A stretch of DNA of 64,000 nucleotides from Amphiscolops sp. MND2022 (Eukaryota): positions 63,676,001 to 63,740,000 of the forward strand of contig OZ076409.1 of NCBI GenBank assembly GCA_964187785.1, in the 5' to 3' direction. Numbering within the stretch: the stretch's first letter is position 1; every line of letters begins with the position of its first letter. The notes below the pieces were generated by a model that saw only the letters and a list, made by a program, of their open reading frames with translations, was not told where the DNA came from and made no database searches. This document shows, in pieces, positions 9,929 through 50,700 of this stretch. The translations under genes and the position numbers were made by a program.

Positions 9929-11841
9929 TGTCGCAGACTGCCGCCTGTGACGGGAATAATTACACTACGACGGCGTCCGAACAGGACATAACACCGGGAA
10001 CGCTACCAATATAGTGAAATACAAACTGCAAACTTTAGAAACTTGTCCTTGTTCCAATTTAGTACCTATTTTACTCATCCATGCACTGATTGTATATTTA
10101 GATAAAATCAATATTAGTCTGTTAAAGTTGTACAATTTGGAAATATCCAAATCAGGCTATTATGCAATGAGTGCAGTTGAAATGCAAAGTTGTCGGATTG
10201 AAAACAGCGTAAACAGGAGCAACTGTAAAGCAGTATAGGAAACGTGTTCGAGTGACGTACAGTGCTATTCCAAAAGCGTCACTTGAGCTCGTTGTCCTGA
10301 CCAATCACATCGCTTCAATTTTGCAAGATTAATACAACTCTAGTATAGTAATGGCCGAATAAGGCCAATTGACTTAGTATGCATGCTTCAAATCACACTT
10401 TAGTCAAACGGCCGGTTCCGGCCGCCTTGATGAAATATGATGATGCTGAACTATTTGTACTTATGATTATTCAAATTAGTCAGGAATTACACTAAACGTG
10501 TTCTTAGTGCTAAATTATACCCCTGTACCGCTCAATGGACTAAATAAGCCCAGTGTTGCCTTGAAGACCGAATAAGGCCTTTTACCACCTTTCCTTTAGT
10601 GCTGAACTAAAAAACCGGATTTGGCCAAATTCGGCCATATTAGAAAAACCTTGTTTTAATAGTGTAGTGATATTTCAAGCAGATCAAGCATGTATTATTT
10701 TATTTTGTTCTTCTCAGCGTTGATTAATAGCCGCGTGGCGGCATGGCGGCACGTGCCATCATAACATACCAATGATGCGAGTTTTGCATTCCGTCAATAG
10801 ACGATAATATTTGTTGACAATAAGTTGATGATATTTTCCATGAATATGCTGTTTGAAGTTGCGACATGTATACCTGTCAAATATTTTTTGTTTGATGTTG
10901 CGTTTCCGAGAATCATGTAAATGTAAGGAATTCTCCCAATTGGGATTTTGTTAAAATATGTACTTTGAGGTTGTTGACTGATATGTGAAGAATGTAACCA
11001 AAGGTATTTGCTGACTTAAATACCTTTCAAAATGTTGTTTCATGTGTATTACATACCTTATGATATTAATCTTGACTAGAAAAATGTGGAAAATGTGAGT
11101 GTCATCCACTCGGGAGTATTAATACTGGTGTTTAGCCTGAGTGGGACACAAATCGTATTCAACGTACCTAGTAAAGATTGTTCTACAAACGGTTCCACTG
11201 TTATTTTCCGAGTTGAGTAATTCATTGTTTAATTCGGACTTTTCTCAATGCCTACTACAAGAAAGCAAAAGAAAGCAAGGAAATCAAGAGGCTTAGAAAT
11301 CCTCTCAGATTTTGAGAACCTTGACATCATGTTAGGTGAGAATCACTTCAATGAGACTGAAAGGGACGAGAGCTTAGATAGTGCTTCCGTCAGAAGACAT
11401 GATAGTGTTATGAGTAATAATCTAGAAAATGAAGGTGGAAGTTCATACTCTAATCATATGAATTCTGACACCGGGACAAATGCCGTTAACGGCCAAAATT
11501 CAGCAGACGTGAGTTCTCAAGCTGAGATCAAAAAATTGTCAAGTGAGCTAAACTCTAGAATATCTAGAGAAATGGATGAGATGATGAACTCAATCAGTAT
11601 TTAGATTCAGAGAGCTATAAATGATGCTATAAGCAATCAGGTATTGCTCCAGATCAGCAAATCCAAAATGTCATTTTGGCCGGATCAGGACGTGCGACTA
11701 GAAAAGGATGGGACGTTTCTGCTGAGAGACCGGAAATTAATCCCGAAGTACAGCGTAACCTAAACGCCAGAAACAACCTGAGAAATGAACAAGACGAAAG
11801 CCACCAAAGTGGTGATTTTCCTAGTTATAATGTTCATGACA
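9929..11841 (+). mobile_element. Solo LTR (1913 bp) of a third giant-Gypsy subfamily related to B
   Basis: Starts TGTCGCAGACTGCCGCCTGTGACGG like the A and B LTRs, ends ...CATGACA, TSD CCCAC (9924-9928 and 11842-11846). Contains the accessory-ORF tail (SQTAACDG...PGTLPI*, to 10014) and the gag N-terminus. Confidence 0.93.
11248..11841 (+). pseudogene. gag: LTR-embedded gag N-terminal segment (stop at 11602-11604 plus a frameshift)
   Basis: MPTTRKQKKARKSRGLEILSDFENLDIMLGENHF...LSSELNSRISREMDEMMNS, closely similar to the element B Gag N-terminus. Confidence 0.85.
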
Positions 11842-12040
11842 CCCACCCTGTTTACTACAAGCCAATACTCGTGTTTATCTTGAGCAGTCTTTTATGATCA
11901 TCTTGACCCGCAAGTCGGTGTTCCATTGCATAAAGTAGTCCTCTACTTGCTGTAATTTATTCCAATTTATTTTTATGAAACCGTTAATTACACTGCAAGA
12001 AGGCTCTACACCTTGCAGTGTGATGAAACCACACCAACAT

Positions 12041-15262: not shown

Positions 15263-15642
15263 TTTTAGTCGGCGCTTCATGAAGTGAAACGCGACTATTA
15301 TAATGACTCTTTTTTTAATCCACTCGAACTGATCTAAATAGTTCTACAAAAGTCCCAAATTGAAAAATTAAATCATTTGACCTAACGAACTGAACCAAAA
15401 AGGTTTTTGCCTCTTTTTCCGCGTAACATGCATTACCGGGCGAGACTAAAGGGTTCACCATTCAGTTTTTTCGGCATTGAGAGACTTTTTTTCAAAAAAA
15501 ATCGCCTTCAATATTTTGATGATTTCCGACAGAATGGATTAAAAAAATTTCAAAACGCCCCCTGACGCGCCAATTCAGCCCAGTTTTTGGGTTTTTCGGG
15601 CACTGTAAAAAAAACTTGACACTTTGAAGTATTTTTGCTATA
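15263..15642 (+). mobile_element. Left part of a HINE-like repeat interrupted by element A (continues at 31799-31852)
   Basis: TGACACTTTGAAGTATTTTTGCTATA joined to TGTTTGACCGTTAGATATGGCGCCGAC...TGTT reconstitutes the uninterrupted copy at 12817-12889. Confidence 0.75.
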
Positions 15643-17145
15643 TGTCGCAGGCGGCCGCCTGTGACGGAATATTATACCAAGTTGGACCCGAAGACGATGA
15701 CACTAATCCCGGACCGGGCGTTTTGCCTATTTGAGAGAAAAACTCCGCAATACGTTAATTATTTAGTTAACAATCTTCTCATGCACTTTAGTTCATTCAT
15801 TTATTCTTATTCATCTTTACATGTAAATATGAAGTCTTATTAATGTGACTCAAGGTCATTTTGACGGCATGAATAATTATATTTTGATTCAATCTTATGT
15901 AAATTAGTTGTTACACCACATTAATAATAATAATGTGAACTAGTACCAAAAGGTGCAAAACGCTGTACAAGCAGTTAATTTGATTGACGTTAATAATAAC
16001 AATAGAAAGCAAGATGACTACTCAAGTGAAAGGAAACGCGTTCAACTGGTACGCTGCTGCCGTCTAGTTGACGCGTAGTCACTTCGCTTCTAACCAATCA
16101 CGGCGCTACATTTAGTTATAGTTCAATGCCGTCATGTGGACGTTAGGTCCAATTAGTTAACGCATGTAGTATTAAATCTGTAGTTGCATGAAAATCACCG
16201 CTAACATGTACCTGTTATTAACCAGTATGTTGCTTCTATTTATAGGACCTATGACGTGTAGTCATATGTCACCTCCGTTGCTATATTTAGAATTGTGATG
16301 TAATAGTTATTTTTAATAATGATGTCATTACTATTTTTACCCAATGACACCCTAAATATTGAGTGTCATACTGTAGTTGCTATATATATGCAAATTTCCA
16401 GTAAGGGATTGATTCATTGTGATAACCTCAATACAAACCGTTCTGATATACACTTTTGATTCGACAATCTATTATTGAACAATACCTTCTTTTGATATGC
16501 CTTCAACTAGAAGACAAAAGGCGAAAGAGAAACGTTCAAGACAGTCTGACATAATGTCTGATATTGAAAATCTAGATGTGATGCTCGGAAATTACTCAAA
16601 CAGTGAAATTAGGGACCAAAACACGGTAGACCAAATAGAAATTGACCCTGAGTCAAGTAGACGGCAACAAGGTTTCAGTCATGAAGAAGGTAACTATAGA
16701 TCTCTTTTGAACACAAATTTGAGTGAGAATAGTGAAATTACAGTAGAAACTAGCAGAGCAATTAGTTCGGAAATTTCTTCGCAGATGTCAAGGAAATTGG
16801 AAGAAATGAAATCTGACTTAAATTCCCATATTATGGAGGTAATAAACTCTGCTATTGATGAAAAAATACTACCGAGCATCGAAAATGTCATAGTAAATCA
16901 CAGGGAGTGTAAAAACGCGAAATTGGACATTCGGTCAGATGGACGGCATCCGAGTAGAAACGTCCCTATGGACCATACTTTGGACCTTGGGTCATATGGA
17001 CGGCATAAAATTAAATTTGGCCAGCAGGTCCAGGACTCAAGAGAGAATTTTCCTAGACTAAGTAAGACAACAAATAACCTTTCAAATCATCAAATGGAAT
17101 GTTCGGGAGATTCTGAACAGAGTGAAAATGATGAAGGTTATGACA
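15643..17145 (+). repeat. 5' LTR of A
   Basis: Direct repeat of 30296-31798; CCAAT near 16094 and TATA-like sequence near 16381 upstream of the gag ATG at 16497. Confidence 0.97.
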
Positions 17146-18293
17146 TGGTGACAGGAGCCAACCCTACTCCACATGTAGTCCCTGAATTTCTGACCGGACG
17201 TCCCACGCAGTCCAGAAACAACATTCCCCATCAACAATGCGTCAACGATGACACATTAGATACCACCCTCCCGGCACAAATTCCCTCAAACCCTATCAAT
17301 GACCGGGAAATGCAGCCCCAAACACCTTTAGACCCCATAAACAGACTTGCCGATGTCATTATGGGAATGAACAACAAATCATCAGCACAAACACTGATGG
17401 TACGACCAGTCAATACTGCCACACTCACATTTGACGGCAAATCTGAAAAATTTGAACTGTTTGAAGACCTTTTTCACACGGTGATAAAGATGCAACCCGA
17501 GATGACGGAAGCTATGAAAATTAATCACTTTCATTCACTGTTGCGCAAAAATGCCCTGCAAACCTTCCGCAACATCAGTTCAGCAAATAGACAAACCTTA
17601 GAAGACGTACTAGCTGTGTTTCGTAGGAAATATGTCAAACCTGAATCCCAGGCAACTGCCAAACATAAATGGCACAAATTGGTATTTGACCCAAACACAA
17701 TGAAATTGCCCGATTTTCTCGAGGAACTCAATCAGGGCGCCGAAAAAGCCTTTGGCGAGCACGCACAAGCCATGATTGACAGTCTACTATACGCAAAACT
17801 TCCACCGAAACTCAAACGTTCAGTCAACATGGCGCGATTAGAGAATGCCACCTACGAAGAAATTGTCACTCATCTCGAACGAGAACTGGAGCTGAATGGA
17901 CTTGAGGAAGGCGACGACATTCCCGTTCCCACAATGTCAACAGCCCCGACAGCCACACGACCGGGTCAAGGACTCCTTTCATCAGGCATTGACCCAGGAA
18001 TAACTTGCAACTACTGCAAAAAACCTGGACATGTCAAAGACGATTGCCGAAAACTAAAACGAAAGGAGGAGCAAAAACGCAATGAAGGCTCGAGTACCAA
18101 AAAAGAGTACCCAAAGTGCCCGACTTGTGACAAAACCAATCACCCGGCGGAGAGATGTTGGAAAGGCGCTGGAGCCCACCTCAAGCCCAAAAACCTCAAA
18201 TTGGATAGTCCAAAGGATGACGACACGACCAGTAGTCGTGATGACCCCACCAATAAACCCACAACTTCTATCCTTAAAAACTCAAAAAACTAG
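16497..18293 (+). CDS. gag: Gag of A (598 aa; first 216 codons inside the LTR)
   Basis: Intact ORF; capsid-like region (FDGKSEKFELFEDLF...), CCHC knuckles CNYCKKPGHVKDDC and CPTCDKTNHPAERC. Confidence 0.95.
   Translation: MPSTRRQKAKEKRSRQSDIMSDIENLDVMLGNYSNSEIRDQNTVDQIEIDPESSRRQQGFSHEEGNYRSLLNTNLSENSEITVETSRAISSEISSQMSRKLEEMKSDLNSHIMEVINSAIDEKILPSIENVIVNHRECKNAKLDIRSDGRHPSRNVPMDHTLDLGSYGRHKIKFGQQVQDSRENFPRLSKTTNNLSNHQMECSGDSEQSENDEGYDMVTGANPTPHVVPEFLTGRPTQSRNNIPHQQCVNDDTLDTTLPAQIPSNPINDREMQPQTPLDPINRLADVIMGMNNKSSAQTLMVRPVNTATLTFDGKSEKFELFEDLFHTVIKMQPEMTEAMKINHFHSLLRKNALQTFRNISSANRQTLEDVLAVFRRKYVKPESQATAKHKWHKLVFDPNTMKLPDFLEELNQGAEKAFGEHAQAMIDSLLYAKLPPKLKRSVNMARLENATYEEIVTHLERELELNGLEEGDDIPVPTMSTAPTATRPGQGLLSSGIDPGITCNYCKKPGHVKDDCRKLKRKEEQKRNEGSSTKKEYPKCPTCDKTNHPAERCWKGAGAHLKPKNLKLDSPKDDDTTSSRDDPTNKPTTSILKNSKN
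17146..17157 (+). promoter_or_regulatory. Primer-binding site TGGTGACAGGAG, inside gag coding sequence
   Basis: Directly follows the LTR end; the identical 12-mer follows the 5' LTR of B (58556-58567, minus strand). tRNA identity uncertain (Leu-like acceptor stem). Confidence 0.85.
18284..18290 (+). promoter_or_regulatory. -1 ribosomal frameshift heptamer A AAA AAC (gag to pol)
   Basis: TCA AAA AAC TAG ends gag; pol is in the -1 frame; same sequence in B (57444-57450, minus strand). Confidence 0.85.
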
Positions 18294-21200
18294 ATTTGCC
18301 ACGACTCCATATTAATGAAAAATTACGCATCAGACAATATATAATATCTGATCCTCCTACTATATACTATACTGAATATTACTCCTCCATTAAAGAAAAT
18401 TCATCAGCTGACTGGCAGCAGCAGGTGAAGCATTTGCCTACTCACTTACACAACCCGGACCTTCAGTCTGACAGACAGCACTCTAATACTACGACCATTC
18501 GCCCCCTTCCCCTAATCGATAACTATAACCCATATTATCCTGACCCGGACTTTGGATTCGACCCCTATTGGGACATTCAAATCTACAACCAACATCAGCT
18601 ACACTTCTACAACAACTTTACCAAAAACATTGCAGATATCGAACCTGATCAACCCCACATTGATCAGATGTTGAACACAAAACTATCCACGGCCTCTGTT
18701 GACCCCTGGCAAAATGTGTGGATTAACACCAATTCACCAATCCAGGAGGCAATATCCGAACAACTTCCACACAATGGACCTTTGGTCACATTGACGGCAA
18801 CAGTGGAAGAGCGCTTTGTGAACACGCTAGTCTCACGAAATGGTGAACCTGACTACGTCCCGTTGACGACCAATTTGGGACTCAAATACAAACGACGGAT
18901 GCTCTACTTCCCCATGGATTTTGGCGAACTAACTTTAGATGGCCTTGTAGACACGGGAGCCCTATCTAGCGCTATCCCAGAAGCTGATCTACGTAAAATC
19001 CGATTACTAGCCCCTCAGTCAATAATTAAAGAGGGCCCAGCACCCAACTTCCAGATTATGGTAGCCAACGGACAGCTGGAGACTCCAAAGAGCACAGTTG
19101 AACTCAAATTCGAGGTCGGCGACATCGATTTCCACGAGATCTTCATTGTTATGGAAAAACTCACAAGTCCGTTAATTGGTCTCTCGTTCCTGCAACGGAA
19201 CAATACCATACTGGACATGCGTCAAGGAGTTTTAAACTTCCCTTTCTTCTCCATGCAATTGAAAACAGCTGACCACAAGTACACTAACGTCATGGAACCT
19301 ATCTGTGCACGGGAGGATATAACTATTCCCCCCAACGACAGACATATGGTTTCCATGTTCTCACAACTATATGACGACACAAACGTCACTGGAATTCTTC
19401 AACCGAGCAACGACCTTGCAGAAGATGGTGATATAACCTTCTGCGCCGCTCTAGTCACACTGACCCAAGGTCAGGTATCAATCCATGTCAACAACTTTAC
19501 TGACCAACCGTACACCCTCAAAAGAGGTGCGCACATTGCCAATTTCTCTATCCTCACACCAGAGCAGATGAAATACGTCAAACCCATTGATCCTGTGACC
19601 ACTTGGCATCTTTTGAAGGATAACCCGGAAAATGCTGCCTATTATGCCAGTAGCCTGATCAAATCTCCGAAAACTAGCGATGATAGTGAGAACTATTGGT
19701 TCCCTACTCCAGAAGAACCAGGAGATCCTCAAACTCACACACCAATACAACAAAGAATCTTTAGGGAACTACGAAATCTCCAAGATCTAGAGAAACTCAA
19801 CCCTCAGGATGACCCTGAATCGCGGAAACAATTTCTTGCTAACTTCGACTGGACAGACTCTACGCTAAATCCAGCCGAAATTGCCCAAATTGAAGAATTA
19901 CTTGTTGAATTTCACGATATTTTTGCACGACACCGCTTTGATATAGGTATGAACGAGGACTTCAAGGTCACTTTGACCCCTAAAGATGACTCTCCTGCCT
20001 ATAGTCAAAGCTTACCTACTCCTATCAACCTCAAAGAAGATATCCTTGTAGAACTAGCCCTACTACACCGATATGGGATTATCACAACTCTCCCATTTTC
20101 CAAATATGCAAGTCCCATTTTCGCCCAGAAAAAACCTAACGGCAAACTTCGACTCCTGGTCGACCTCCGAAAGATCAACAACCTGATTTCCGACGATTAT
20201 ATTAACAACAACCATCCTGTCAGCACACTAACAGATGCTGCGCAGCACATGGCAGGCAAACGATTATTTTGCAAACTTGATTGTTCTCAAGCATACCACT
20301 GCCTTCAGATGGCTGACCAGAGGTCAATCGAGATGCTAGCATTCAATTTTGCCAGCAGAACCTTTGCCTATCGTCGACTTGCCCAAGGTCTCAGCAGAGC
20401 GTTGTCCGCATTCTCGAGCTTTATGCGCGAATACCTGGATAAAGTGATAAAAGCTGACCAATGCGCTCAGTACGTAGATGATATTGGGATAGCTGCAAAC
20501 GACGCTACCCAGCTCATCAACAACCTTCGAGCAACGTTCCAGTGCATCAGGACCGCTGGTCTCAAACTAACGATGCACAAGTGCCATTTCGGAGCCAAGG
20601 AAATAGACTTCCTGGGACGCACCATCACTCCTGAAGGGGTGCGGCCACAACGACCCAGGGTCCAGAATTTCTTGGAAAAGACCAAATTCCCTAAATCCAA
20701 GAAAGCACTTCAAAGATACTTGGGATTCTTGAACTACTACCGTAACTACATCCCAAGGCTCTCAGAAAAACTCACACCGTTTTTCAAGTTATTGAAAAGT
20801 GATGCCAAAGTCATGGTGACACCCGATCTGTTAGAAAAATTCACCGAGATCAACAAAGCTCTTGACCGATGTTGTGAACTGGCACTCAAACAACCTCTAC
20901 CCGATAAACAGATAGCCCTGATGACAGACGCTAGTTTTTCGGCAGCAGGTTATGCAGTTCTCATCGAGGACGATCCGATGGAAAAATATACTTCGACGCG
21001 AAAAGCCTTCGCACCTGTAGCATATGGATCCAAGACCTTTAGTCCAGCCCAACTGAAGATGTCCATTTATGCGAAAGAATTCCTAGCAATATTCTTTGCA
21101 TTCAAAGAGTTTGGCCATATCTTCTGGGGGACCCCGAAACCGGTGATAATACTAACAGACAACAAGTCAGTCACTCGCTTTTTTCAAACAAAAATCATTC

Positions 21201-23473
21201 CACCCACATTGTGGAACGCGTGTGACTACGTTATGCAATTCAGTTTCACAATAGCCCATATACCTGGCAAAAACAATACTGCCGCTGACTACTTGTCACG
21301 TCTAGAAATCTGTCCCAAAGAAAAACTCATACTCCGGATACGAGAAGATATTTCCACCACACCCATTGAACTCAACGTCCAATCAGCGGGAGTTACTGAA
21401 GAAGAACAGATCTTCTATACGGACGAGGATGAAGAAACAGAAGAACAAATCTGGAAACGCAAACAAGACGCCAGGTCAAACCCAATGAATCAACCTCCTG
21501 ATATTTTGTTAGATCATCTTAGCACTCATGATAATACACAATTCCAAACTCAAAATATACAAAAACTGGCAAAACCAACCACCATGGCTATAGAACAACA
21601 GAACGACCTTATCTTGCATCAATTACGACTCAAACTGCAAAAAGAAGAATACTCTGAAACCATCTTACAGCAAGATTCGCGCTACCGACATTACTGCCGC
21701 CAAATTGACCGTCTGTCCGTACATGATGACATCATTCTCAGAGACTACTACGATGAAACAGGCAGTGTCCAATTCCGCCAAGCATTATTACCGAAACACC
21801 TAGTCACAGAATTACTCCAATCACTACATGGTTCCGCGAACAAACACCCGGGAATCTCAAAAATGCTGCACGAAATTCGACGAAAATATTACTATCCTGG
21901 AATCGCAAAAATTGTCAAAAAGTGAGTCCAAGGGTGTGAAATTTGTATAAAAGACAAAAGAATCAACAATGCATCCATAACACCTGAATTACTCATTTTA
22001 CCTGAATGGGATCTTGGCCGGGAAGATGCCTTACAAATTGACATTCTGCCCAACTTACCCCCAAGTGGAGGTTACGAAAATGTCATAACGGCTCTGGACG
22101 TGTTTTCGAGATATCTTTTTGCCTACCCAGTAACGGACGCTTCGGCCATCAATACGGCAAAGGTCATTATTGATATCATGACAAAACATTCCTACTTGCC
22201 GACTACACTCATCACCGACAAAGGCACTGCCTTTACGTCCAAACTACTAGAAGAAATTACCAAAATTTTAGGGATTCACCTTCGGTGCGCGACCACAAAG
22301 CATCCTCAGACGATAGGCAAACTAGAACGCACTCATGCCAGCCTTAAGGGCAACCTTAAAATGGCATCAGGCGAATACAGGCGTCAATGGCACAAATATC
22401 TCCCATTGGCCGTCCTTAATTATAACACGACCTATCATTCAAGTCTTGGATGCGAACCCACCCGAATTTTTCACGGAAGAGTACCCTATAATATCTTAGA
22501 CCATCGGTTAGGATTAAACCCTAACCCAAAGGTCACTCCAACGACTGATTTTGCTGAAGAATTTCAAAGACGCACGCAAATATTAATTGATCAAACAAAG
22601 AAAAACATTATGCAATCATATTTAAAGTACAAGGAATATTATGACCGAAAGGCTAAAGCAGCTCCTCTACAACAAGGAGATTTTTGCTTCATTTTACAAC
22701 CTCTAGCTGACCATCAAGGCTCTAAAATTCCTTTTCGTGAATTTCGTTGGATCGGACCGTACGTCATAGAAAAAGTTTTACCTAACGACAACTATATTGT
22801 TCGCAAACTTAGTACTAACAAAACGCAGATATTACACCGAATACGCCTTAGAAAATACACTCCAAATACTACCCCACAAGACATTCGTCCCGAAGGAAAT
22901 TTACAAGCAGACGATGAAATTATTATTCCACAAGATGATCTGTACATCATTTCATGGGAAACCAATTTTGACGATTTCTCTCCTAACTCTGAAAATCGGA
23001 CTGTTACTAATGAACTCCCTACCAATTCCGATGAACAAGACGCTATAATCACAGATTTGGACCTACGGTCCACGCGACGGCAAACAAATACTGACGCCGC
23101 TCGCGCTGATGATACTGATAGTGACTCACGTTCAAACGAAATAAACGAAGCGGACCTTCGGTCCGCGCGACGGCAATCAAATACTGAGGCTGATAATACA
23201 GAGCAATACTCAAGAAATGCACACAATGAAGACCGTCAGTCCGCTAGACGGCAACAAAGTACCGAATCTGAAAACGATGAATTGACCAATCAGGACCTTC
23301 CTAGAGATGAAAATTCAGAATTTTCAACTTCTGGGGGGAACGATACAACCGTGCCCGATGTATTAATTGAAGAAACTGATGATTGTGTTGTAGAAAATGA
23401 AAGTCCTAGGGGAGGGAGATATAACCTACGTCCCAATCCTACCCCCAACTTTACTGACGAATACAGATACTAG
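18290..23473 (+). pseudogene. pol: Pol of A (PR, dUTPase-like, RT, RNase H, IN) with one in-frame TGA at 21923-21925
   Basis: LVDTGA protease, YVDD RT, TDAS...TDNK RNase H, integrase HHCC/DDE and GPY motif. ORFs 18296-21925 and 22100-23473 share a frame and are separated only by a TGA where B has Trp (KTWVEGC). Confidence 0.93.
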
Positions 23474-23700
23474 TTAGAACATGTAAATTCACTGGCCCGA
23501 CTCAACACCTTTTGACTCTACAATTATCTTTTTATGGGCCTCGACTGACTTGTAGTCCACAATAACAGATCAAACACAAGCATCATAATGACACAACTGT
23601 ACAAACAGACTTCAAATAACGATAAAATAAAAAACTCAAGACTGACAGACAAACGAAAGATACATAAATACAACTAAAAACAAATGTACATATAGTACAA

Positions 23701-26700
23701 TTAAGTGTCTTTAGTAAATGAAGGGGATGGCAATTCACTATCAGATTGCCGCTTAACTGGCGAATTGTTCAAACTGGAGGCAGGAAGACTCTTGGTAACG
23801 CTCCTACCTTTTGGATTCTTGAATTGTATCCTTCGAGAATCAGTCTTCTGAGGGACAGCCTTCGGTTTCAAGACAGAGAGAATGTGGGAACGGTCAAAAT
23901 AATCCAAGCCGTCCCATGGACTGTATGTGTCGGAGAATGCGGAACTTCCAAACGTAGGCTCAAAAGCCAGGAACTCAGAGATCGAAGAAGACGTAGTCAA
24001 GGCGTCGATACTGCGGCCCACATTTATGAAAAAGGATTGCACTGGAAGGATGGTGTCAATCAATTTACTTTTCGGATCATCAGTCCGGACTGGTCCAAAC
24101 TTCACTGAGGGCATAATTGTGTAATCTTCGTCGAGGCACAAACAGCTCAATTTGAAAATACGCGCAAGATGAGGTCGGGACTTTAAGGCATCATGACGCA
24201 ATATGAAGGTAACAGCATCAATGATTATAACCCTGGGCTGGTCCAACTCGGGCATCTCCTTCCTCAATTCGTCCAAGAAGGATAGGTATTCTTCAGTGCA
24301 GACGGATTCATCGGCAGGCTGGAAATACCCACGAAGTTGGAAGCTGCGAAAAAGCAGCTTGAAACAGTAGAGTGCCTGACTGAGTGGCGAACGAAACATG
24401 ATGTCCAGGTCGAAAGATCCGAGTCCTCTGACTATGTCGGACGTAAGTTGCAAATTACTTTGAGCAGCGTGGAACAGATAAGCGACATATGCGCGAGCAA
24501 GACGTCCAAACTCTTCCTTTCCTTCCTTCACAAGTTTGGGCAAATTGGCACGGTTCCCCTTCCTGTCACTCAGTTCTTTCTCTGCCTTGATCTTACAAGC
24601 GACGTTCAGTCGTTGCTCCAGTTTGGATCGCGCAATAAAGTCAGTCACTGTAAGGGCTCTAGCATCAGAAACAACTATGTTCAAAATTCCGGACAAATCA
24701 CTTTCTGGTGGAAGGCTTTTGGGTTTGATGCATCGTCTGCCGAGCTTGAGAAGGAATTGACACAACTGTCGGTAAATATGAAATCCGTGATCACGTCGTT
24801 CGACCAAGTGTGGCACGAAACTAGTAGTGTCTAAATAAAGTATAATATTAAAATTACGCAACCTAACTCAGCGCTATAAACAATGAATAGGAACCACTCA
24901 CAATCCCTGACAAGGCGATAGAAGAGCTCAAGCCGGCAGAGGAACAATTCATCACTGAGCATCGCTCTCTCAAGATTCTGCGGCTGAAAAACAAGATAAT
25001 AACATGAGAAATTTATTTTGGACTTGAGGTCGCAATGACGGCAGAAGCTTACTTGTTTCCTCACCCCCATCATTTCATGGGGCGGAGCGTGAGTATTGAG
25101 ATAAGTAGTAATGCTGGCCCAATTGGCGAGAAGCTCCTGACACAGGGTAGGTAATGTCTCCAGCTCGATTTGACAAGTCCGTACTGCCTAAAATTACTGG
25201 ACTTAAGAACTCAGTTAAGACATAACAAATCAATACAGACTGGGGAAATGACAAACCTTCGCAAGGACGGGGGTTAGGAGAGTCCAATCACAGTCGAGGC
25301 ATCCTCCAAGAAAGACAATGAGATATTTCAGCACAGAATGAAAATCTATCCGTCCGAAAACACTATAGCTTTCTTTGTGCATCAATCTGGCTAAGGAGAA
25401 TTCAGCAAATTGGAGTGGTCGCTGTAGCCCATGTTTACTGAATGGCGAATTGTCTAGAATCTGAATCGTTTCTAGGGTACCACCAGAACAGCTGACGATA
25501 TTGGGAGTAGTTGAGAAGACGGCCATGAGGTCACTGATCAAACTAAGTTCGGCTGAGCTTTGTCCGAGAACTCGTCCGGTACGTTTCAGGAAGACCCGGC
25601 ATAACTCGTCTTTTCGCCAGAACCGGATGAAAACAAGCAGAAAGACTCCCTGCTTCACGAATTCCAGGGAATATTCTCCTGACTCGACCACGTGTGTGCC
25701 AATATCACGAATAGTCTGCAAGAACAAGTGATGGAACAGGACCTGAAAGAACAACAACTAACTTTTAGACATTGTTAACCAAAGGTCAGAAACGGACAAC
25801 AAGTCAGCGTGACGGCAATAAGATACTTACGGACAAGCGTTCTTTACTCCAATCGAAGTCTGTAAATAAGGACTGGTGGTTGACTACAACTCCAATATCC
25901 CGCCACAGGTTCCTCAAAGCACTGATGTCTCCAAAAGAGCGCAAATAATGACCGAGGACTGAAACCTGCACTTTCACCCTGTTCTCCGAAGAGGATGCCA
26001 TGTAATCCGTTCCTCTCAGATAATCGTCATAAAATGGCAGTTTCTCACCAATGTCGACGAGTTCAACTCCAATGAATTTTGGCAGTTCAAGTTGTAGCTC
26101 GTACGGTGTCAGTAGCCTTCCGTCCCCACCGCGGACATGGTGCTTCACCATCTTGGTTACTGGATCTTCAGTCGCAAGATGATGATATCGCCACTTTTGG
26201 TCCCTTCTCAGGTGCTTTTCGGTGCCATGGTGGCGGAGGATTTCTCGTGCTCCCTGACCATAAATTGATACATTGCCCTTGCAAATTTGACAGTATATCT
26301 TGTATGGATTCCATCGAGGATCCATGGGCCCAGACACGAAAGTTTTAGTCCACTCCATGCCTTTAAAATACGCTTCCTTCATGATTTTGCAGGCACGGGG
26401 CACTCGATGTCGATTTCCACTCCTGTTGAGAGATGGTTTCTTGCGAGGTTTTTTCCGAGGAGTAGGCTTAGACTTTTCAGCAATAGCTTCCGCTTTTAAC
26501 ATGGCAAGAGTTTGGGTCCCCGGACTTTCAACTCGGGGTTCACCTTCTATTGACATTGGGACAGTCTGACTGCACCCTGGGGGGCCGACAGGCGGCGGAG
26601 CGAAAGGCTGACTCTCCCCGGACTTTCAACTCGGGGTTCACCTTCTATTGACATTGGGACAGTCTGACTGCACCCTGGGGGGCCGACAGGCGGCGGAGCG

Positions 26701-28232
26701 AAAGGCTGACTCTCAAGGTCAGAATGTTCATAAGCATACCCTATGCTGGCAAACTCATCATCGCTCCTTAAGGCTCCACTGGTATCGCTAGCCTCTCCAG
26801 ATAACAAATCGGATTGCACCCCAGGACTTTGAGTCCGGTAACTAGATCTCTTGGGGGTGACTCTGCCTGATGGAGGAAATTGTGGTGTTCCAAGACTCAA
26901 TCGGCACGTCTGATGAACCAGGTTCTCCATTGCCTTCAGAGAAGACCTAACTGCTTCGTCAGCGACGACCCTCAGAATGTTGCTGACTTGACTCTCATTA
27001 AGGGCTAAAGTTGTATGGCCCGGCGGTAGCATTACTGGAGTCACGGCCTCAAAGCATTCTTTTATCATAACGCGGCTGCTTGCTGAAAGTTGGGGACTTC
27101 GCGTCGCCTCCTCTGGAAAATCCACGGATGTAACACTACCTGCGTCACTGACTCTCAATCGACTCTTGTCCAAAGGAGCATACAGAGCATCCGCTACGGT
27201 TGAGCCAGCAGGACCAGCTGACTCATGCCCGGTATCACTGGCAAATCTATCGGAAGGCACACGTGGACTAGCGACAATTGGGTCGTTTGATCCAAATTCA
27301 TCCGTCGAACTAAGACAACCCTCAGAGTGTGATGAACCTTCTGTCTCAGCATTAGATATGGAAAGCTCTTTTCTAGTCTCACCGATTTTGACGCAGAGTT
27401 TTTGAATCTTCGCCTCAGGTGGCTTATACATCGATTTGAGGTTGCTCTTGATAGGGGCGACAGGGGAATCCAAGAAAGCGACCCTTGATACAGAGTCCGA
27501 ATCGGTTTCAGTGTGGTCTGGTGCATCTCGCTGTGGCATCAACTCTAATGTGATGCTCTCACTGCACTTGCCCAAGTTGCCGTCACTTGGACCTTGGGTA
27601 CGATCTTCGAGAGAATCGCCTAACTGTTGCCATTTTCGAGCTATGTATGCCCCTCAACTCTCGTCAGTGCTGCTGCTTTCCACACCGACAGTTGGTACAA
27701 CGGTCTGTGGAGTTGTTGGCGGTTCAGATTGATTGCATAGCTGAGGATGTTTGCGGCATTACAGTTAGATCCTTTTCCTGCACTTGTTCGGATTCTTTTG
27801 CCTGAGAGCCCTCGGGAATGATTGTAAAATCCATCTCCGTAACAGTCTCGGATCTGGCCGGGGTATCCGTTTGAAGAGTAGCTTCCTTTTGATTGCAGTT
27901 TTGATCACTCAACAAAGTGGGGCTTTCAGCGTGGGGGGATGCAGTCACAAAGGACTCGCTGGTCTCCATTCTTTCTTCCTCCGCATTCAATTGGAGAGGT
28001 TGGTCGTTGAACTCATTATCTAAACGAAATGAGATAAATAAGCGCGGCTCACTTCCTGAATATGAATCCATCTTAGCGCTTTGAACAAAATACTTCCGGA
28101 AGTTCCTTTGACATAATGTTCATACTGTATGTGAACATTTCACGATGGAGGAAGTGACTTTGTTAAAATTAAGAGCCCTGATCAAGCCTAATTTTAACAC
28201 ATTTAAAAGAACCAACCTGACGCTGAATCCAT
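23701..28232 (-). pseudogene. Antisense spliced accessory gene of A (BED-type Zn finger, hAT-transposase-like), disrupted. Predicted exons 28232-28217, 28019-25831, 25742-25257, 25187-25053, 24983-24902, 24830-23701
   Basis: GT-AG introns at the same positions and phases as in B; internal exons 486, 135 and 82 bp in both; CQIC...RHHGTEKH finger. Lesions: frameshift near 27740, TGA at 27654-27656, 98-bp tandem duplication at 26517-26714. First mini-exon less certain (alternative ATG at 28071). Confidence 0.8.
26517..26714. repeat. 98-bp tandem duplication frameshifting the antisense gene
   Basis: Two adjacent copies with period 98; removing one puts ORFs 27575-26547 and 26556-25804 in one frame. 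Confidence 0.92.
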
Positions 28233-28847: not shown

Positions 28848-28951
<104 letters not shown>

Positions 28952-29583: not shown

Positions 29584-30387
29584 ATGTCTTTGCAGTTTAA
29601 CACTGAGGGTATAAATGGACCATTAGTGAGTCTTTCCTATCGATCCTCTGATGAAGAAATGGAAGTAGATTCCATCTACTCAGTACACGATAGCGACGAT
29701 GACGACATTCAAGTCATAGCCTGCTACTACGAAAATCAGGAATTTCCACCACAGCTGACGGCAGGTAGAGCTATGACTACGGACTTGTCTGACTGCCTCG
29801 GTTACTTAAGCTTACCGGAAACCACTTCGGAAAGCTACTTTACCGAGCCGACGGAAGAGCTTATCGATTGGTTCGTCGGAAGTCCACCGTCAACCTACTC
29901 CGGGGTACAGCCACAACAACATCCTATAGCTCAATGTAGTCAAATTGACCCATTGCCTTACTCGCCATTATCGCCGCCACTGATCGATCAATTCCCCAAC
30001 TACGCACCAAGGGTCAACGATCATGAGGTCCAAGAAGAGCCGCAATGGGCTAGGAACCAACACATCACTGGCCTGGGCATCAGCGCAAGCGGACTATGCG
30101 GACAGCCCAATGACGTGCTCTACGGTGGTTGTGTTGTCTGCGGGAAATCGTTCCAGGCAATAAAGGAAGAGGTGACACTCGGCTTTCTAGAAAGTACTCA
30201 TGTTCCTGGAGAGACGTACGAACAACGACAAGCGAGACGGCGAGCCTTCGAAGCTGGAATGAAAGCCGGATCTTTCATTGTCATCCCCCGGGGAGTGTCG
30301 CAGGCGGCCGCCTGTGACGGAATATTATACCAAGTTGGACCCGAAGACGATGACACTAATCCCGGACCGGGCGTTTTGCCTATTTGA
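29584..30387 (+). CDS. Sense accessory ORF of A (267 aa), ends 92 bp inside the 3' LTR; function unknown
   Basis: Intact ORF homologous to 46785-46000 (SPxSPP, GCxVCGxS, AxExGxxAG, VSQAAACDG, PGxLPI). Exact start uncertain. Confidence 0.85.
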   Translation: MSLQFNTEGINGPLVSLSYRSSDEEMEVDSIYSVHDSDDDDIQVIACYYENQEFPPQLTAGRAMTTDLSDCLGYLSLPETTSESYFTEPTEELIDWFVGSPPSTYSGVQPQQHPIAQCSQIDPLPYSPLSPPLIDQFPNYAPRVNDHEVQEEPQWARNQHITGLGISASGLCGQPNDVLYGGCVVCGKSFQAIKEEVTLGFLESTHVPGETYEQRQARRRAFEAGMKAGSFIVIPRGVSQAAACDGILYQVGPEDDDTNPGPGVLPI

Positions 30388-31798
30388 GAGAAAAACTCCG
30401 CAATACGTTAATTATTTAGTTAACAATCTTCTCATGCACTTTAGTTCATTCATTTATTCTTATTCATCTTTACATGTAAATATGAAGTCTTAATAATGTG
30501 ACTCAAGGTCATTTTGACGGCATGAATAATTATATTTTGATTCAATCTTATGTAAATTAGTTGTTACACCACATTAATAATAATAATGTGAACTAGTACC
30601 AAAAGGTGCAAAACGCTGTACAAGCAGTTAATTTGATTGACGTTAATAATAACAATAGAAAGCAAGATGACTACTCAAGTGAAAGGAAACGCGTTCAACT
30701 GGTACGCTGCTGCCGTCTAGTTGACGCGTAGTCACTTCGCTTCTAACCAATCACGGCGCTACATTTAGTTATAGTTCAATGCCGTCATGTGGACGTTAGG
30801 TCCAATTAGTTAACGCATGTAGTATTAAATCTGTAGTTGCATGAAAATCACCGCTAACATGTACCTGTTATTAACCAGTATGTTGCTTCTATTTATAGGA
30901 CCTATGACGTGTAGTCATATGTCACCTCCGTTGCTATATTTAGAATTGTGATGTAATAGTTATTTTTAATAATGATGTCATTACTATTTTTACCCAATGA
31001 CACCCTAAATATTGAGTGTCATACTGTAGTTGCTATATATATGCAAATTTCCAGTAAGGGATTGATTCATTGTGATAACCTCAATACAAACCGTTCTGAT
31101 ATACACTTTTGATTCGACAATCTATTATTGAACAATACCTTCTTTTGATATGCCTTCAACTAGAAGACAAAAGGCGAAAGAGAAACGTTCAAGACAGTCT
31201 GACATAATGTCTGATATTGAAAATCTAGATGTGATGCTCGGAAATTACTCAAACAGTGAAATTAGGGACCAAAACACGGTAGACCAAATAGAAATTGACC
31301 CTGAGTCAAGTAGACGGCAACAAGGTTTCAGTCATGAAGAAGGTAACTATAGATCTCTTTTGAACACAAATTTGAGTGAGAATAGTGAAATTACAGTAGA
31401 AACTAGCAGAGCAATTAGTTCGGAAATTTCGTCGCAGATGTCAAGGAAATTGGAAGAAATGAAATCTGACTTAAATTCCCATATTATGGAGGTAATAAAC
31501 TCTGCTATTGATGAAAAAATACTACCGAGCATCGAAAATGTCATAGTAAATCACAGGGAGTGTAAAAACGCGAAATTGGACCTTCGGTCAGATGGACGGC
31601 ATCCGAGTAGAAACGTCCCTATGGACCATACTTTGGACCTTGGGTCATATGGACGGCATAAAATTAAATTTGGCCAGCAGGTCCAGGACTCAAGAGAGAA
31701 TTTTCCTAGACTAAGTAAGACAACAAATAACCTTTCAAATCATCAAATGGAATGTTCGGGAGATTCTGAACAGAGTGAAAATGATGAAGGTTATGACA
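30296..31798 (+). repeat. 3' LTR of A (second copy of the gag 5' end from 31150, reading into flank to 31854)
   Basis: Direct repeat of 15643-17145 followed by TSD CTATA. Confidence 0.97.
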
Positions 31799-44218: not shown

Positions 44219-46088
44219 TGTCGTAAGCACGAGAGTTTGTGCTTGTGAGTCCGTCTTTGGAACGGTCATTGGTTTGTTTGTTCTTAGAATTGTTCCTAGG
44301 TTCTAAGTTTTGCAGTACTTCAGAATATCCTTCCGGTCTCTCATCCGGAACGTTCCATCTCTCTCTGGTCAATTGTCCCGATCCGACCAAAACTGCATTT
44401 AGGATTTGAGGCAAAATTTGACTACTAATTGCCTCATTTATGGCCCTTTGAATCTGAACACTGACGCTACTCATCATTTCATCCATCTCTCGAGATATAC
44501 GTGAATTTAAGTCACTCGACAATCTATTGATCTCAACGCTTGAACACTCCCTGATCGAATTATGGCCTAATTCGGTATTTGGACTTGGTCCGTTATTTCT
44601 TGGATTCGGGAACCCATTTTCATTTTCATCTCCAAATTCATCTCCAAACAAGCTTTCTGGCCTACCGGCTTGATTACTATTCACACTTTCATTTCTCTCA
44701 TTTCTTTCAAAATGGTTTTCACCTAACATAATGTCCAGGTTTTCAATATCTGATAACATGTCAAGTCCTCTAGACTTTCTTGCTTTCTTTTGCTTTCTAG
44801 TGGTAGGCATCAAGACAGAACCGGGTTGAATAATTCAATTATTAAAACCGGAAAACTGACAAAAGTCGTTGTATTATTTCGATCTTTATCAAAGTGAGGG
44901 TATGAGATTAATGATCTTTTTACAAGAATATGGCTATATATACTCGTAAAAGGATGACACTCACATTCCATAAATTCTTTGATCAAGAAAAACATCACAT
45001 GACTATGGCTTCAACAGGTCATTTGACAAATGCTATTTCCACGTTAGGTAAGTTATTCAGCACTTCAAAGCGGATACTTTAGGGTGATGTCCCGATTAGG
45101 GAAATTCCTAGTTTCGGGGTAGCCCTTAGGAATTCAACATCAAAGGAATGCTATTTAAAAGTATACACAAGCAGCACCTTCAAGTGTCGTGTTTACAAAC
45201 ATCATCAACATCATCCTGTCAACAAATACCAATGTCTATTGAAGGAATGCAAAAGGCATCTCTTTGGAACGTACTTGTGACACGCGCTACCACGCGCCTA
45301 TTATTTAACGTAAGTGGGGACTAGATTAAATACTACATGATCAGTTCTGCTTAAAATACTACAGCACTATTAAAATAACACACTTTCTGGCAATGCCGAA
45401 AATGGACAAAATCCGGTTTACTAATACAGCACTATAATAAAAGAGGGCAAAAGCCTTATTCGGCTTTTGAGTGATCACTAAGTTTATTAGGCTCATTGCA
45501 CGGTGTTGGTACTTTCATTCGTTATTAAGGGTACATTTGCAGTAATACACGATTAGTACACTCAATTAACACACATATAAGCTATTCCAATGGAGTGGCC
45601 GGAACCGGCCGTTTGACTAAAAGGCACAATTATTGAGTCAATTGGCCATACTCGGCCACTACATAATCGGAGTGGTATTACTTATAGAAAAGGAGCATTG
45701 TGATTGGTTAAGGAGTTGAGCTCAAGTGACGTCTCCGGAATAGGAGTTTCGTTCACTTGAACTCGTTTCCTTTCTACTGCACAGCTACATTGTCACGTAT
45801 TACGTTTACAATAGCAACGCATCTTTCAATCTTCTGAAGTTACAAATACACTATTTGAATCTTCAAATGTAACTTTTAACAGACTAATTTTACATGTGCA
45901 AGTATATATATATATATCGGAGCTAACAACATCAACAAATATATTACGTATTGAATAACAAAACAGTATGAAAGTTCTAAGTTTGTAGGTTATTCCAATT
46001 CAATAAATGGGTAATGTTCCTGGTACAAATTCTTGTCCGGTTGCCGAGGTCGTCACACTTGTACCGTCACAGGCGGCAGCCTGCGACA
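44219..46088 (-). repeat. 3' LTR of B (1870 bp); gag 5' copy from 44810 reads into flank to 44097
   Basis: Minus strand TGTCGCAGGCTGCC...TTACGACA; about 15 substitutions and a 4-bp TA indel versus 58568-60433. Confidence 0.95.
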
Positions 46089-46785
46089 CTGCGGGAGCAA
46101 TAAAAAGAAAACAGCCAGCATTGAGTCCGTTCTCGTACGCTTCCTTCCTAAGCCTGGTGATGTACTCGGGCTCATCTCTGGGTGTGGATCGCTGCATGTA
46201 CCATTCCACCTTCTCGTTCTTGATCGAGTCTACTGAACGGCCGCAAACCATGCATCCCGTATAAGGCACCACGCTAACATTTTGATAAGGCACTGTGTTT
46301 TGCACATGGTAGGACGCGTAAAACCCGCTCATTGGTGGTTGGACTAAAGGGGTATCCTGACTTGGTCCTCTTTCGTGGTCCGGCGGCGACATCGGGGACT
46401 CTAGAATTGGTAAGATTGTATTGCACAGTTCGATGCGTGACTTTTCCATCCTTTTAGGAGGGGCATAGCACCTTTCTAAGTCGAAGTACTTGTGATCCAT
46501 TTTTGGCGTCTTCTCAGCACTTACACCTGATGTGCTTGGTCCAGTCACTGACGCATCTTCTTCAGGTATCTCCGATGCCATTATCCTTCCCCCAATGAGC
46601 ATAGGGCTAGATGTTACTTCTCTTTCTATCTGCGCTATCAGTTGTTCTGTATCGGTGGAACAATCCGTCTCCCAGTCTGACTCTTCGCTCTCACTACTCG
46701 ATATGTAGATTACCGATTTCTCAGAGCCGTCTGAGTCGAATTCTTCTAAGTCGAATAACTTCCTTGCGAGGTTGTATTTACTCAT
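46000..46785 (-). CDS. Sense accessory ORF of B (261 aa), ends 89 bp inside the 3' LTR
   Basis: Intact; homologous to 29584-30387. Confidence 0.88.
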   Translation of the reverse strand: MSKYNLARKLFDLEEFDSDGSEKSVIYISSSESEESDWETDCSTDTEQLIAQIEREVTSSPMLIGGRIMASEIPEEDASVTGPSTSGVSAEKTPKMDHKYFDLERCYAPPKRMEKSRIELCNTILPILESPMSPPDHERGPSQDTPLVQPPMSGFYASYHVQNTVPYQNVSVVPYTGCMVCGRSVDSIKNEKVEWYMQRSTPRDEPEYITRLRKEAYENGLNAGCFLFIAPAVSQAAACDGTSVTTSATGQEFVPGTLPIY

Positions 46786-47703: not shown

Positions 47704-50700
47704 ATGTCTTCCAATCCAGGTTGGTTTGATTTTCTCTTTCTTTCAAACAAGCTTAGCTTGATCAAGGCTAAACATTGTTCACATGACGCTTCCTGTTTCC
47801 ATCAACTAGACGCGTGAAAGCACGCTTCATTCAATTTTCAAGACACTTCCGGAAGATTTCCAACGCGGTAAAATGGACACTTTTCAAGGAAGCATACCGC
47901 TAAACTTTATCTCTTTTCGTTTAGATAATCAGACTTCTGAGATTGAAAACGTACCCAACCCTTCTGGACTGCCGCAAACAATTTCCAATGAAGGTACAGT
48001 TCCGAGTGTGGCGGATATCGCCAAGTCTGCGATTTCTCCCCAAAGTGTCGAAAGTGAGGTGGACGTGAATGCCTATGCAGAAGCTAAAGTACAAGAGATG
48101 GAGGTCGAGCAGAGTCAAATGCAACAACGATCACCTTCCAGTGATCTCAATTTGATGACGACCAACCCCGAGGCTTCCACTAGCACCTATGTTCCCCAGA
48201 GTTTAGTCCCAGTTCGGTCCAGTACCCCAATACCGGTAGAGACTGCTGGAATATCCCAAGCCAGCTTGCACACATTAGAAGCAGGTCTAACAGTTGTAAA
48301 CAACCCTGGGTCCCAATTACCTGAGCTTCTTCCTGCCACTGAAGTGGGGACCGTTGTTCCGCCAGTTAGGAAGACCTTGGACGATGAGGATGGAGAATCT
48401 TCTGTCTATGAAGTTCCTATGTTGCCCACCCAGGAACACAAAGTCCGGTTCTTGACCGACTTGAGTGAGGCTGAGAAAACAACCGGAGAGGCGAGCAGCA
48501 CTGAATGTCCTTCACTCTATGGGGATATTCCCGGGATGTCCGAATCTGGAGGAGAGACCAGTGAATGCCCTGACACTACCGTCCTTAGACAGCACCAGAC
48601 CGACCCACAGGCGTCCACTTCTCAAGGCTTTGACATCCAACATCCTGAACTCTCTGGAAGGGCGCGAGCCATACTGAAGACTTATTTCGATGAGACGCAT
48701 GCTTTTCGGTTCCCGCCAGGACAAACAGCAGTTGCCTTCACAGAGTCTCAGGTATATCACTTGTTACGCGTCTTAACTGACGAAACGCTTCGGATGTCAT
48801 ATTCTACCATGGAAAGAATGATTCTGGATGCAGTCCGGGGTAGTCCTACAGTCGCCCCATCACGCACTGACCATTTCAAATCAAGGACCAGAGCGCAGAC
48901 CCCTTACAGGGAACCTGATAGCGACTCCAGCGACGCCGAGACCGGAGACTTGCCGACTACGGATTCTGAGGGACATGACACCATAGACCGGGGTACACTT
49001 GGCGACTCTTCCTCATTTGGAGAAAGCGACAGTGCTGGCGAAATGGCCTTGATTTCGGCTTCTTTTAAAACTTCAGCCATAATTACAGACGTCCCAATTG
49101 TGTCACCTACAGAGCAGCTAGGAGTCATACAGACTGGTAGTCAAGAAACTGACCGAAGCAGTCAGGATATCACTTTATCTGAGGTGAGAGAACAGTCACT
49201 CCGATCTAGGCCCAAGTCAATGAGTAAGAAGGCCCCGAAGACTAAGAGACCACCTCAACGTGGAGTTCCAATGCGCGAGGAGTTCTTCGCAAAAATTGGT
49301 TGGACCCGGTCGTTCATCTCCGGGCCAGCGGACCCGATCCACAACCCCTTCATGGTCTGGTGCCACATTTGCAAAAAGAACTTCTCCATTAGAAGTAAGG
49401 GGACAATGGAGATACTCAGGCACCACAGGACCGAGAAGCACCTTAGACGGGACCAGAGATGGAGGTACGAGCATCTGAAAAGTACCGATCCAGTTACACT
49501 CAAGACCCAACACTGAGTCCGAGGCAGAAATGGGAAAATCTTGAGCAAGATAGAACTGGCCAAGGAGCTCCCCAAGTTTATCCATGTGGATTTAGTGGAT
49601 ATCGGAGAACGTTTTCCTTTCTACGAGGACTTCATTCGAGGTAGGACTACTCCCTTGGTTACTCCCGAGTCCCGAGCAAGAACTCAGCTAAGCATGGTAG
49701 CTGATTTCATCCAGAGCTATGGCGACATCACCGTCCTCCGGAGCATGTGGGCCAAGGTCAGTTCCGTTACCGACCATCAGGCTTCCCTTTGCGACTTCGA
49801 TTGGGGAGAAGAGAGGATGACTGTAAGTATTATTTGCTTTCCCTTCTCACAGGACCTTCCCCTTTCTAGGTTGTTATCTTTTGGCTTGTGTCCCTTTTAG
49901 GCAATATTCCAACATTTCTTCAACTGTGCCATGAGTGACGTTGCTGACCAGATTTCCACCCTGCAATGCTTTGCCTTGGAATTTGAAGACCAGGGACCCA
50001 ACCGATTCATGTCCGTGAGGTTCTGGAAGGGTCAATATCTTTGCAAAGTCATTGCTTGTCGCAGCAGGCTACCTACCACTGACCTCACCGGAGAGCTAGG
50101 TTCCATGGCGCGACTCTTGTCTGCAATCTCGACAAAGGCGGACATAGTGGCCTGTTCTGGGTGTCCGGCCGATCTAATCCGGACCATAGACGAGCTCCCA
50201 ACTTCGGCGCGGGCTGTACAGAGCTGCTTCAGGTTCAACCAGCTCAACCTGTCCAAGTTGATGCACAAGAAGAACTACAGTGTCTTCGGCCACATAGACT
50301 TCTTCTCAGTGCTACGCGGCTTAGTCATTTCCCTGGGTGGGTTGACCGATGAGGACTGGATACTACGTAGTCCCGAACTGGCCAAAGTAAGTGGGTGCTC
50401 GTTTCATTTTGTAGCGCTAACTCGTACTCTTAAGGGTTTCTAGACGGGTTATTACAGTGGCTCCGCTTTTCCTTTAGGCTATTTCCAAGAGCGATCTAGA
50501 CATGTCTACACTGCCTGCTCTGTGCCAAGAACTCATGGACGAGTGGAAATCCGTGGTCTCTTTCCTCACCGAGCACTCTCCCAAACAACTAGGCCAGGGA
50601 GTTAAAACTAGAGTAAGTGTCTCAACTCAAGTTTCGTCTTTTCCCATTAGACGCGGAGATCTTGTAGTTACACCGTAAACCTTTTGTTGCAGGTTCAGAG

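Follow-up and report, generated by a model that had tools for sequence, protein, structure and literature searches.

Long terminal repeats (LTRs) are usually treated as non-coding control regions, and annotation splits the LTR of a retrotransposon from its internal part. The window considered here, a stretch of 64,000 nucleotides of repeat-rich eukaryotic DNA with a GC content of about 40%, holds elements in which a reading frame joined to gag begins several hundred nucleotides before the LTR ends. The question raised by this locus is whether that frame belongs to Gag, how widely the arrangement occurs, and which copy of the LTR is translated.

Self-comparison of the window, combined with its lists of open reading frames (ORFs), revealed two large related LTR retrotransposons, designated A and B. 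Element A (15643-31798, + strand) is recognized by its LTR pair and ORFs; its 5′ LTR (15643..17145, +) and 3′ LTR (30296..31798, +) are each 1503 bp long, the former with TG..CA ends, and the pair is flanked by the target-site duplication (TSD) CTATA (15638..15642, with the right copy at 31799-31803). Element B lies on the opposite strand, with a 5′ (shared) LTR of 1866 bp (58568..60433, −) and a 3′ LTR of 1870 bp (44219..46088, −), and its TSD is obscured by a flanking duplication; the surroundings of B are themselves duplicated, with a 4390-bp repeat and a jump at 62953. A solo LTR of a third family, C (9929..11841, +), is flanked by the duplication CCCAC, and an ordinary short-LTR gypsy element, D (3121-9034), served as a control; the LTR of D is 180 bp long and its first Gag-like ORF begins 54 nt past the LTR. 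The boundaries of the elements can be regarded as fixed because the LTRs of A are nearly identical (3 differences in 1503 bp) and because clean TG..CA ends and 5-bp target duplications are found, both in A and in solo LTR C. No tRNA genes and no Rfam families were detected in the 64-kb window.

The pol domains of A and B follow the order PR-RT-RH-IN (Pfam), as in Ty3/gypsy. Among solved structures, pol matches Ty3 Gag-Pol best (9e-45), with foamy virus next (3e-29). A BEL-specific pol domain was not found in A or B with Pfam, and A and C both display the LTR characteristics of Ty3/gypsy, namely TG..CA ends and a TSD of 4-6 bp. Judged by these sequence characters, A and B are Ty3/gypsy (Metaviridae) elements of large size (about 16 kb), with LTRs of 1.5-1.9 kb. 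Membership of Ty1/copia was rejected, as the pol order is not PR-IN-RT-RH, and so was Troyka, for which the available text of PMC12440569 gives CG..CG termini and a 3-bp TSD, against TG..CA and 5 bp here. An env-bearing gypsy element or errantivirus was likewise rejected for lack of an env-like or transmembrane ORF: Pfam returned no env match in A and B, and the highest 19-residue hydropathy among nine ORFs was 1.47.

The pol ORF of A (18668..23473, +) and that of B (1701 aa; 52237..57342, −) both encode PR-dUTPase-RT-RH-IN according to Pfam, and the former carries an in-frame stop (21923-21925) in integrase. The heptamer A AAA AAC precedes the gag stop of A (18284..18290, +), with pol open in the −1 frame, and the same holds in B. 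We take this heptamer to belong to the slippery class, and Gag-Pol is probably made by a −1 frameshift at this position; no strong structure was found downstream of the heptamer. Both elements also contain an antisense accessory ORF region, which is split into several pieces in A (23701..27653, −) and includes a BED-finger-like segment in B (47873..51998, +).

The gag ORF of A (598 aa; 16497..18293, +) encodes a capsid-like region, whose Pfam match to DUF1759 is near the cut-off, and two Cys/His knuckles. Its first 216 codons plus 1 nt (16497..17145, +) lie within the 5′ LTR, as do 197 codons of the gag of B (572 aa; 57441..59159, −). The gag ATG stands 649 nt before the LTR end in A (ATG at 16497), 592 nt in B (ATG at 59159) and 594 nt in C (ATG at 11248), distances that a sequence-only reading of this DNA had proposed and that the LTR boundaries and TSDs bear out. 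The gag portion takes up 32-43% of the LTR, and the accessory gene adds about 5%. The junction in A and B reads TAT/TAC GAC A|TG GTG ACA GGA, that is, D-M-V-T-G across the LTR end and the primer-binding site (PBS). The putative PBS, TGGTGACAGGAG (17146..17157, +; 58567-58556 in B), is a TGG-initial 12-mer that adjoins the 5′ LTR, is identical in A and B, and is read as (M)-V-T-G.

A neutral frame of the same composition would stay open over 216 codons (A) or 197 codons (B) with probabilities of 6e-8 and 5e-7, respectively. Over the LTR-coded stretch A and B have no blastn match, yet each keeps an open frame in a phase common to the two, and the encoded proteins are 38% identical. The frame of solo LTR C, by comparison, is broken twice, by an 8-nt insertion at 11647-11654 and by a stop at 11602-11604, which is codon 119. 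The LTR-coded head of Gag has a basic stretch of 16 residues at its start and is about two-thirds polar or charged overall, with conserved blocks at about residues 1-33 and 68-130 and with variable linkers; the capsid-like region begins about 85 residues past the junction Met. Searches with the head returned nothing useful in Pfam, no PDB sequence at E<=1 when used as a profile, and only Atlas matches of 0.75-0.76, below the usable range. As far as sequence can tell, the LTR-internal frame encodes a conserved Gag N-terminus and runs on unbroken across the right att site and the PBS.

Constraint at the protein level is seen most directly between B and C, for which 118 gap-free codons have identities of 0.69, 0.78 and 0.48 at the three codon positions (Fisher p=6e-6); pN is 0.27 against a pS of 0.69 in the LTR-coded part, and the other two frames of the region hold 6-20 stops. 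Because every-third-base identity in the non-coding U3 blocks of B and C is also uneven, by chance, the codon-position test counts as a result on this one pair. The corresponding identities between A and B are 0.52, 0.55 and 0.33, values biased by the protein-guided alignment. Blockwise conservation exceeded every one of 60 neutral simulations in all seven pairs tested. Judged by BLOSUM62, by contrast, the substitutions are not clearly more conservative than simulated neutral ones: the fraction of positive scores equalled that of the neutral simulation in 7/7 pairs, and in six of the seven the mean score differed from it by no more than about 1.4 SD. Weak constraint outside the blocks is expected from the polar or charged composition of the head and its basic start. 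The LTR-coded part shows conservation of the coding type, in which third positions have changed most, but the BLOSUM62 result was null.

The occurrence of the arrangement beyond the window was examined at the protein level. Residues 1-300 of Gag, used as a query (ENA), matched 560 protein clusters, of which 120 were listed, and the junction motif, as a loose pattern, is present in 119 of these 120 listed homologues, mostly at residue 211-218; the earlier proposal that the att site and the PBS are read as codons in a conserved phase is supported. The 3′-LTR ORF as query matched 536 clusters, with 120 listed, 110 of them new. Among these 110, 66 diverge from Gag after the Asp of the junction, 27 end earlier and 12 run into gag; the remaining five fall outside this pattern, four of them also diverging at Asp and one continuing. 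As the LTR ends GAC-A, the next codon must start with A, and the residue after Asp is I, M, T, N, K, S or R, the set with A-initial codons, in 66 of the 66 diverging ORFs, which are separate 90%-identity clusters. The chance of this residue set is 0.43 for each, which by arithmetic gives about 4e-25 for all 66, and A-initial continuations also occur in one further cluster, in all 11 of the members that were informative (14 were listed). The 66 continuations thus map the LTR end to the same base without recourse to DNA.

A search for distant relatives gave 2237 matches, 150 of which were listed, and from these 146 new 50%-identity representatives were obtained. Among these listed representatives, 134 match the capsid and 24 have at least 85 residues upstream of it; M[VA]TG is kept in 20 of these 24, down to 45% capsid identity, and in those that look complete it is located at residue 115-224. 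D, H, N or Y precedes 166 of the 168 M-V-T-G-type motifs in all Gag-search proteins collected, which fits the LTR end because the codons of these residues are xAC or xAT and are compatible with ..AC-A; in the distant families, the position of the LTR end is inferred from this protein pattern alone. A metagenome scan gave only 8 weak zinc-knuckle matches. The 16-nt junction has 15 exact matches in viral contigs, which were taken as chance. By the protein patterns described above, the LTR-coded Gag head is a family-wide and sharply mapped feature.

These data also bear on a trivial explanation of the layout, in which mis-assembly or a local duplication added copied gag sequence to the LTR, or the frame is open by chance. 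The duplicated surroundings of B give some reason to consider it, and it is countered by the clean TG..CA ends and 5-bp TSDs of A and solo LTR C, by the 66 separate 90%-identity clusters that break at the same codon and base, and by a probability of an open frame below 1e-6, so that an artefact of this kind appears exceedingly improbable.

The opposite end of the LTR is also coding. The sense accessory ORF X is 267 aa long in A (29584..30387, +), with its last 30 codons inside the 3′ LTR, and 261 aa long in B (46000..46785, −), where its tail is likewise inside the 3′ LTR and where a second copy lies at 61130-60345; neither has a Pfam hit. This overlap with the LTR is a second one, absent from the sequence-only reading. 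ORF X crosses the plus-strand priming site and the left att site and ends ~90 nt inside the 3′ LTR, and its tail is conserved in A, in B and at the start of C. The tail motif was located at the LTR start in 64 of 108 homologues (69 pattern matches less 5 spurious ones), and in 47 the tail measures 29 residues. The purine tract that precedes the 3′ LTR of A is a run of 6 nt only (9/20 purines) and there is none before that of B (5/20), compared with 14/20 in control D; relatives encode R/G-G at the plus-strand priming site. Reading frames therefore run through the plus-strand site and the PBS as well as through both att sites.

How such an element might be transcribed is suggested by the region upstream of the gag ATG. 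Near the ATG, the non-coding feature best conserved among all three LTRs is a 9-nt motif, GAGTGTCAT, followed by a TATA-like box (16361..16388, +). The motif is aligned in A, B and C at 136-152 nt above the ATG (130-150 nt for motif and box in round figures), and the pair is a predicted core promoter. Downstream of it, A contains a candidate variant poly(A) hexamer, AATACA (16430..16435, +), with the counterparts GATAAA in B and AGTAAA in C; their offsets from the motif are +69 (A), +72 (B) and +73 (C), with T-rich sequence after them, and AATAAA is absent at the proposed R/U5 border. A short R with TATA near the poly(A) signal has been described in other LTRs (PMC3601003, available text), and the variant hexamers, picked out post hoc, are a weak sign of a short R that may end near the ATG. 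If transcription started 30 nt below the TATA-like box, R+U5 would measure 735 nt in A, 694 nt in B and 696 nt in C. The earlier proposal that R/U5 and minus-strand strong-stop DNA exceed 600 nt gains from the motif and the TATA-like box, which give 690-735 nt, insofar as the RNA does begin above the ATG, a start site that we infer.

According to the model proposed here, genomic RNA would begin about 85-100 nt above the ATG, a point ~30 nt below the TATA-like box; R would be short and mostly above the ATG, U5 would consist almost wholly of gag, and the minus-strand strong-stop DNA, primed by a tRNA, would reach about 700 nt. In LTR replication, progeny U5 is copied from the parent 5′ LTR, through the 5′ end of the RNA, and U3 is copied from the 3′ LTR, through the 3′ end of the RNA. 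Each coding piece would therefore pass to progeny from the LTR copy whose frame joins it to its gene: the Gag head would come from the 5′ LTR, in frame with gag, and the tail of ORF X from the 3′ LTR, in frame with ORF X, so that selection can keep both. Gag-Pol produced by the −1 frameshift would bear the same LTR-coded head, and the copies of the head in 3′ and solo LTRs would be by-products with random tails. This account of a clade with both LTR ends coding, an RNA start above the ATG and a U5 that is mostly gag appears highly plausible.

The start codon itself has to be weighed against a second candidate. In terms of context, an ATG with G at −3 and +4 is better and one with T at −3 is poorer, and a second form of Gag has a precedent in glyco-Gag. 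The LTR ATG has T at −3 in B and C, whereas the junction ATG has G at both −3 and +4 and thus the better context, and the distance of about 85 residues from the junction Met to the capsid-like region would suit a shorter protein; internal entry, splicing or a second start site might then let capsid-forming Gag begin at the junction Met, while the LTR frame would specify either a minor isoform of greater length or a regulatory protein made from a spliced RNA. A comparable case can be found in the available text on Cer1, in which GAG and the spliced regulator CERV share N-terminal exons (PMC10309623). Leaky scanning to the junction is, however, blocked by 18 ATGs in A and 16 in B, counted from the LTR ATG inclusive; the junction ATG is forced by CA|TGG, and the same ATG in D is followed by a stop after 7 codons; and genomic RNA must begin inside the LTR anyway. 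Production of two Gag forms is thus considered unlikely, and translation would probably start at the LTR ATG.

The two ends of an element then differ in what the frame can yield. The 3′ LTR of A contains an ORF (31150-31854, +) of 216 Gag codons and 18 host codons, and that of B contains one (44810-44097, −) of 197 Gag codons and 40 host codons. The sequence-only reading had assigned a promoter and an ORF reading into host DNA to every 3′ or solo LTR; the ORFs of A and B are indeed there, but the frame of solo LTR C is broken, and decayed solo LTRs lose the Gag frame. In 11 members the median length of the host-coded tails is 12 codons, compared with 12.0 expected from random sequence; among cluster representatives, which may favour long members, it is 17. 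The idea that read-through into host DNA is something special is not sustained by these values; tails as selected products were rejected on length, and because the tails have chance length, read-through is a by-product on present evidence. A more elaborate possibility is that the 3′ and solo LTRs act as mini-genes made of a promoter and a Gag head, with all cis signals in protein code, whose capsid-less products would act in trans as a dominant-negative brake on copy number or would be a source of LTR-host fusions; this seems doubtful.

The random tails also speak to which LTR copy is used. MMTV sag and HIV nef are U3-type genes expressed from the 3′ LTR, and the LTR frame could, in principle, be a gene of this type, carried on a subgenomic RNA with transcription starting below the frame, given that coding constraint alone is silent on which copy is translated. 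The frame has no stop codon of its own, however, and so only the 5′ copy yields a defined protein, while the 3′ and solo copies run out into random tails no longer than chance gives. Moreover, all families keep one phase between the frame and gag, and no promoter-like motif is conserved in A, B and C other than the one above the ATG. The two LTR copies of B differ over the Gag-head stretch by 7 nonsynonymous and 2 synonymous changes, small numbers that are as expected for an unselected copy. A U3-type gene is accordingly very unlikely, and the 5′ LTR copy, read into gag, is preferred.

The closest known parallel in layout is Ty1. The Ty1 LTR codes for about a dozen codons, and about 15-fold more are coded here; we know of no Ty1 ORF that runs into U3. 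In Ty1 of Saccharomyces cerevisiae the PBS lies inside the GAG ORF, at RNA nt 94-104, according to the available text of PMC4974528, which upholds the likeness to Ty1 drawn in the sequence-only reading. A and B resemble Ty1 in that gag starts in the LTR and the PBS falls within the ORF, and differ from it in superfamily and in extent: R-U5 is about 90 nt in Ty1, as far as that source goes, and here there are ~200 codons and a predicted length of ~700 nt.

Within their own superfamily, A and B have the PR-RT-RH-IN order, TG..CA ends, a 5-bp TSD, a putative TGG-type PBS and Cys/His knuckles in common with Ty3/gypsy. Gag of Ty3/gypsy elements normally starts after the PBS, and A and B depart from the usual form in their long LTR-coded head, in a dUTPase between PR and RT, and in a purine tract that is minimal or absent. 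Like ORF X, the accessory ORFs of HIV (nef) and MMTV (sag) enter the 3′ LTR across the PPT. Both viruses, however, are env-bearing retroviruses in which gag starts well after the PBS, unlike A and B, in which no env-like or transmembrane ORF was seen. The plant gypsy elements Grande, RIRE2 and Retand carry extra conserved sense or antisense ORFs located after pol and ahead of the 3′ LTR (PMC7264820), and A and B can be likened to them, by description only, as large elements with accessory ORFs 3′ of pol; gag within the LTR is not described for the three in the available text of this review, where the word "overlap" does not appear. Cer1 of C. elegans is a gypsy element with a long non-matrix Gag N-terminal domain before CA and an accessory ORF 3′ of pol; its LTR is 492 bp long and positions 957 and 1175 are 5′ UTR (PMC10309623), so that its gag, on the available text, starts outside the LTR, unlike that of A and B. 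In a fish V-clade element it is pol that overlaps the LTR (PMC11117352, available text), and the available parts of PMC3587641 and PMC9911081 contain nothing on an LTR-coded gag layout. No description of a long gag stretch inside the LTR was found in the full-text literature covered; a precedent may exist in subscription papers, most of which lie outside this coverage, or in Repbase or GyDB. The principle of the layout is known from Ty1, of which the gypsy clade described here has an extreme, two-ended form.

The consequences concern both annotation and the evolution of these elements. The customary split between LTR and internal part would cut about a third off these Gags and start them at the wrong Met. 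The layout shows that dual coding is tolerated, throughout a deep clade, by att, by the PBS and by the plus-strand primer site, and the evolution of such LTRs can be followed with codon models. The proposed model predicts that selection on the Gag head is confined to 5′ LTRs and that on the tail of ORF X to 3′ LTRs. As the family is abundant, with 560 and 536 protein clusters matched by the two queries, many solo LTRs could express the Gag head.

The junction unit, the D-M-V-T-G stretch in which the gag frame of elements A and B crosses the LTR end and the PBS, recurs within single proteins recovered by the homologue searches. Several in-frame variant copies of an H/D-M-V-T-G unit are found in proteins P0291, P0309, and P0375, and multiple copies were likewise recognized by eye in P0314, P0300, and P0320. 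The presence of multiple in-frame variants suggests that the LTR-end/PBS unit has been duplicated in these proteins with its reading frame preserved. Element D, a decayed ordinary gypsy element (3121–9034) with 180-bp LTRs and the TSD ATATT, served as the control element, and its PBS differs from that of A and B.

Immediately before the 5′ LTR of B, the 3′ internal region of B occurs a second time (60434–62953; 14 differences in 2520 nt), and beyond it the sequence jumps to a copy of 40778–41821 (62957–64000). Judging from this arrangement, the 5′ surroundings of B would represent tandem elements with a common LTR, together with a segmental duplication or an assembly artefact. Divergence between the two LTRs of B is higher in the gag-coding part (58568–59159 versus 44219–44810; 9 differences in 592 nt) than elsewhere, where about 1274 nt contain 6 substitutions and a single indel. 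Recombination among subfamily copies may account for this contrast. The plus-strand priming site of A (30276–30295) contains a purine run of only 6 nt, and that of B (46108–46089) is rich in pyrimidines.

The window also contains the C-terminal part of an ORF (1–684) that, by resemblance, is a candidate for the terminal portion of an RT from a non-LTR retrotransposon, as well as a 365-bp palindrome within D (5761–6125), a 90-bp palindrome (44029–44118), and dispersed or tandem AT-rich repeat clusters (12040–13900 and 39695–40238).

In the pol of A, a dUTPase domain (residues 212–292; 19300–19545) lies between the protease and RT and scores above the Pfam cut-off; Pfam did not report this domain in the pol of B. 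Between pol and ORF X, the sense accessory ORF running into the 3′ LTR, an antisense accessory ORF region is conserved by tblastx in A (23701–27653, minus strand) and B (47873–51998, plus strand). In A, this region carries an exact tandem duplication of 98–100 bp (26517–26714), which shifts the frame. One segment of the antisense region resembles a BED-type zinc finger in the Atlas (scores of 0.90–0.92; zf-BED in 41% of one cluster), and Pfam gave no match for it; this segment could derive from a captured DNA-transposase fragment.
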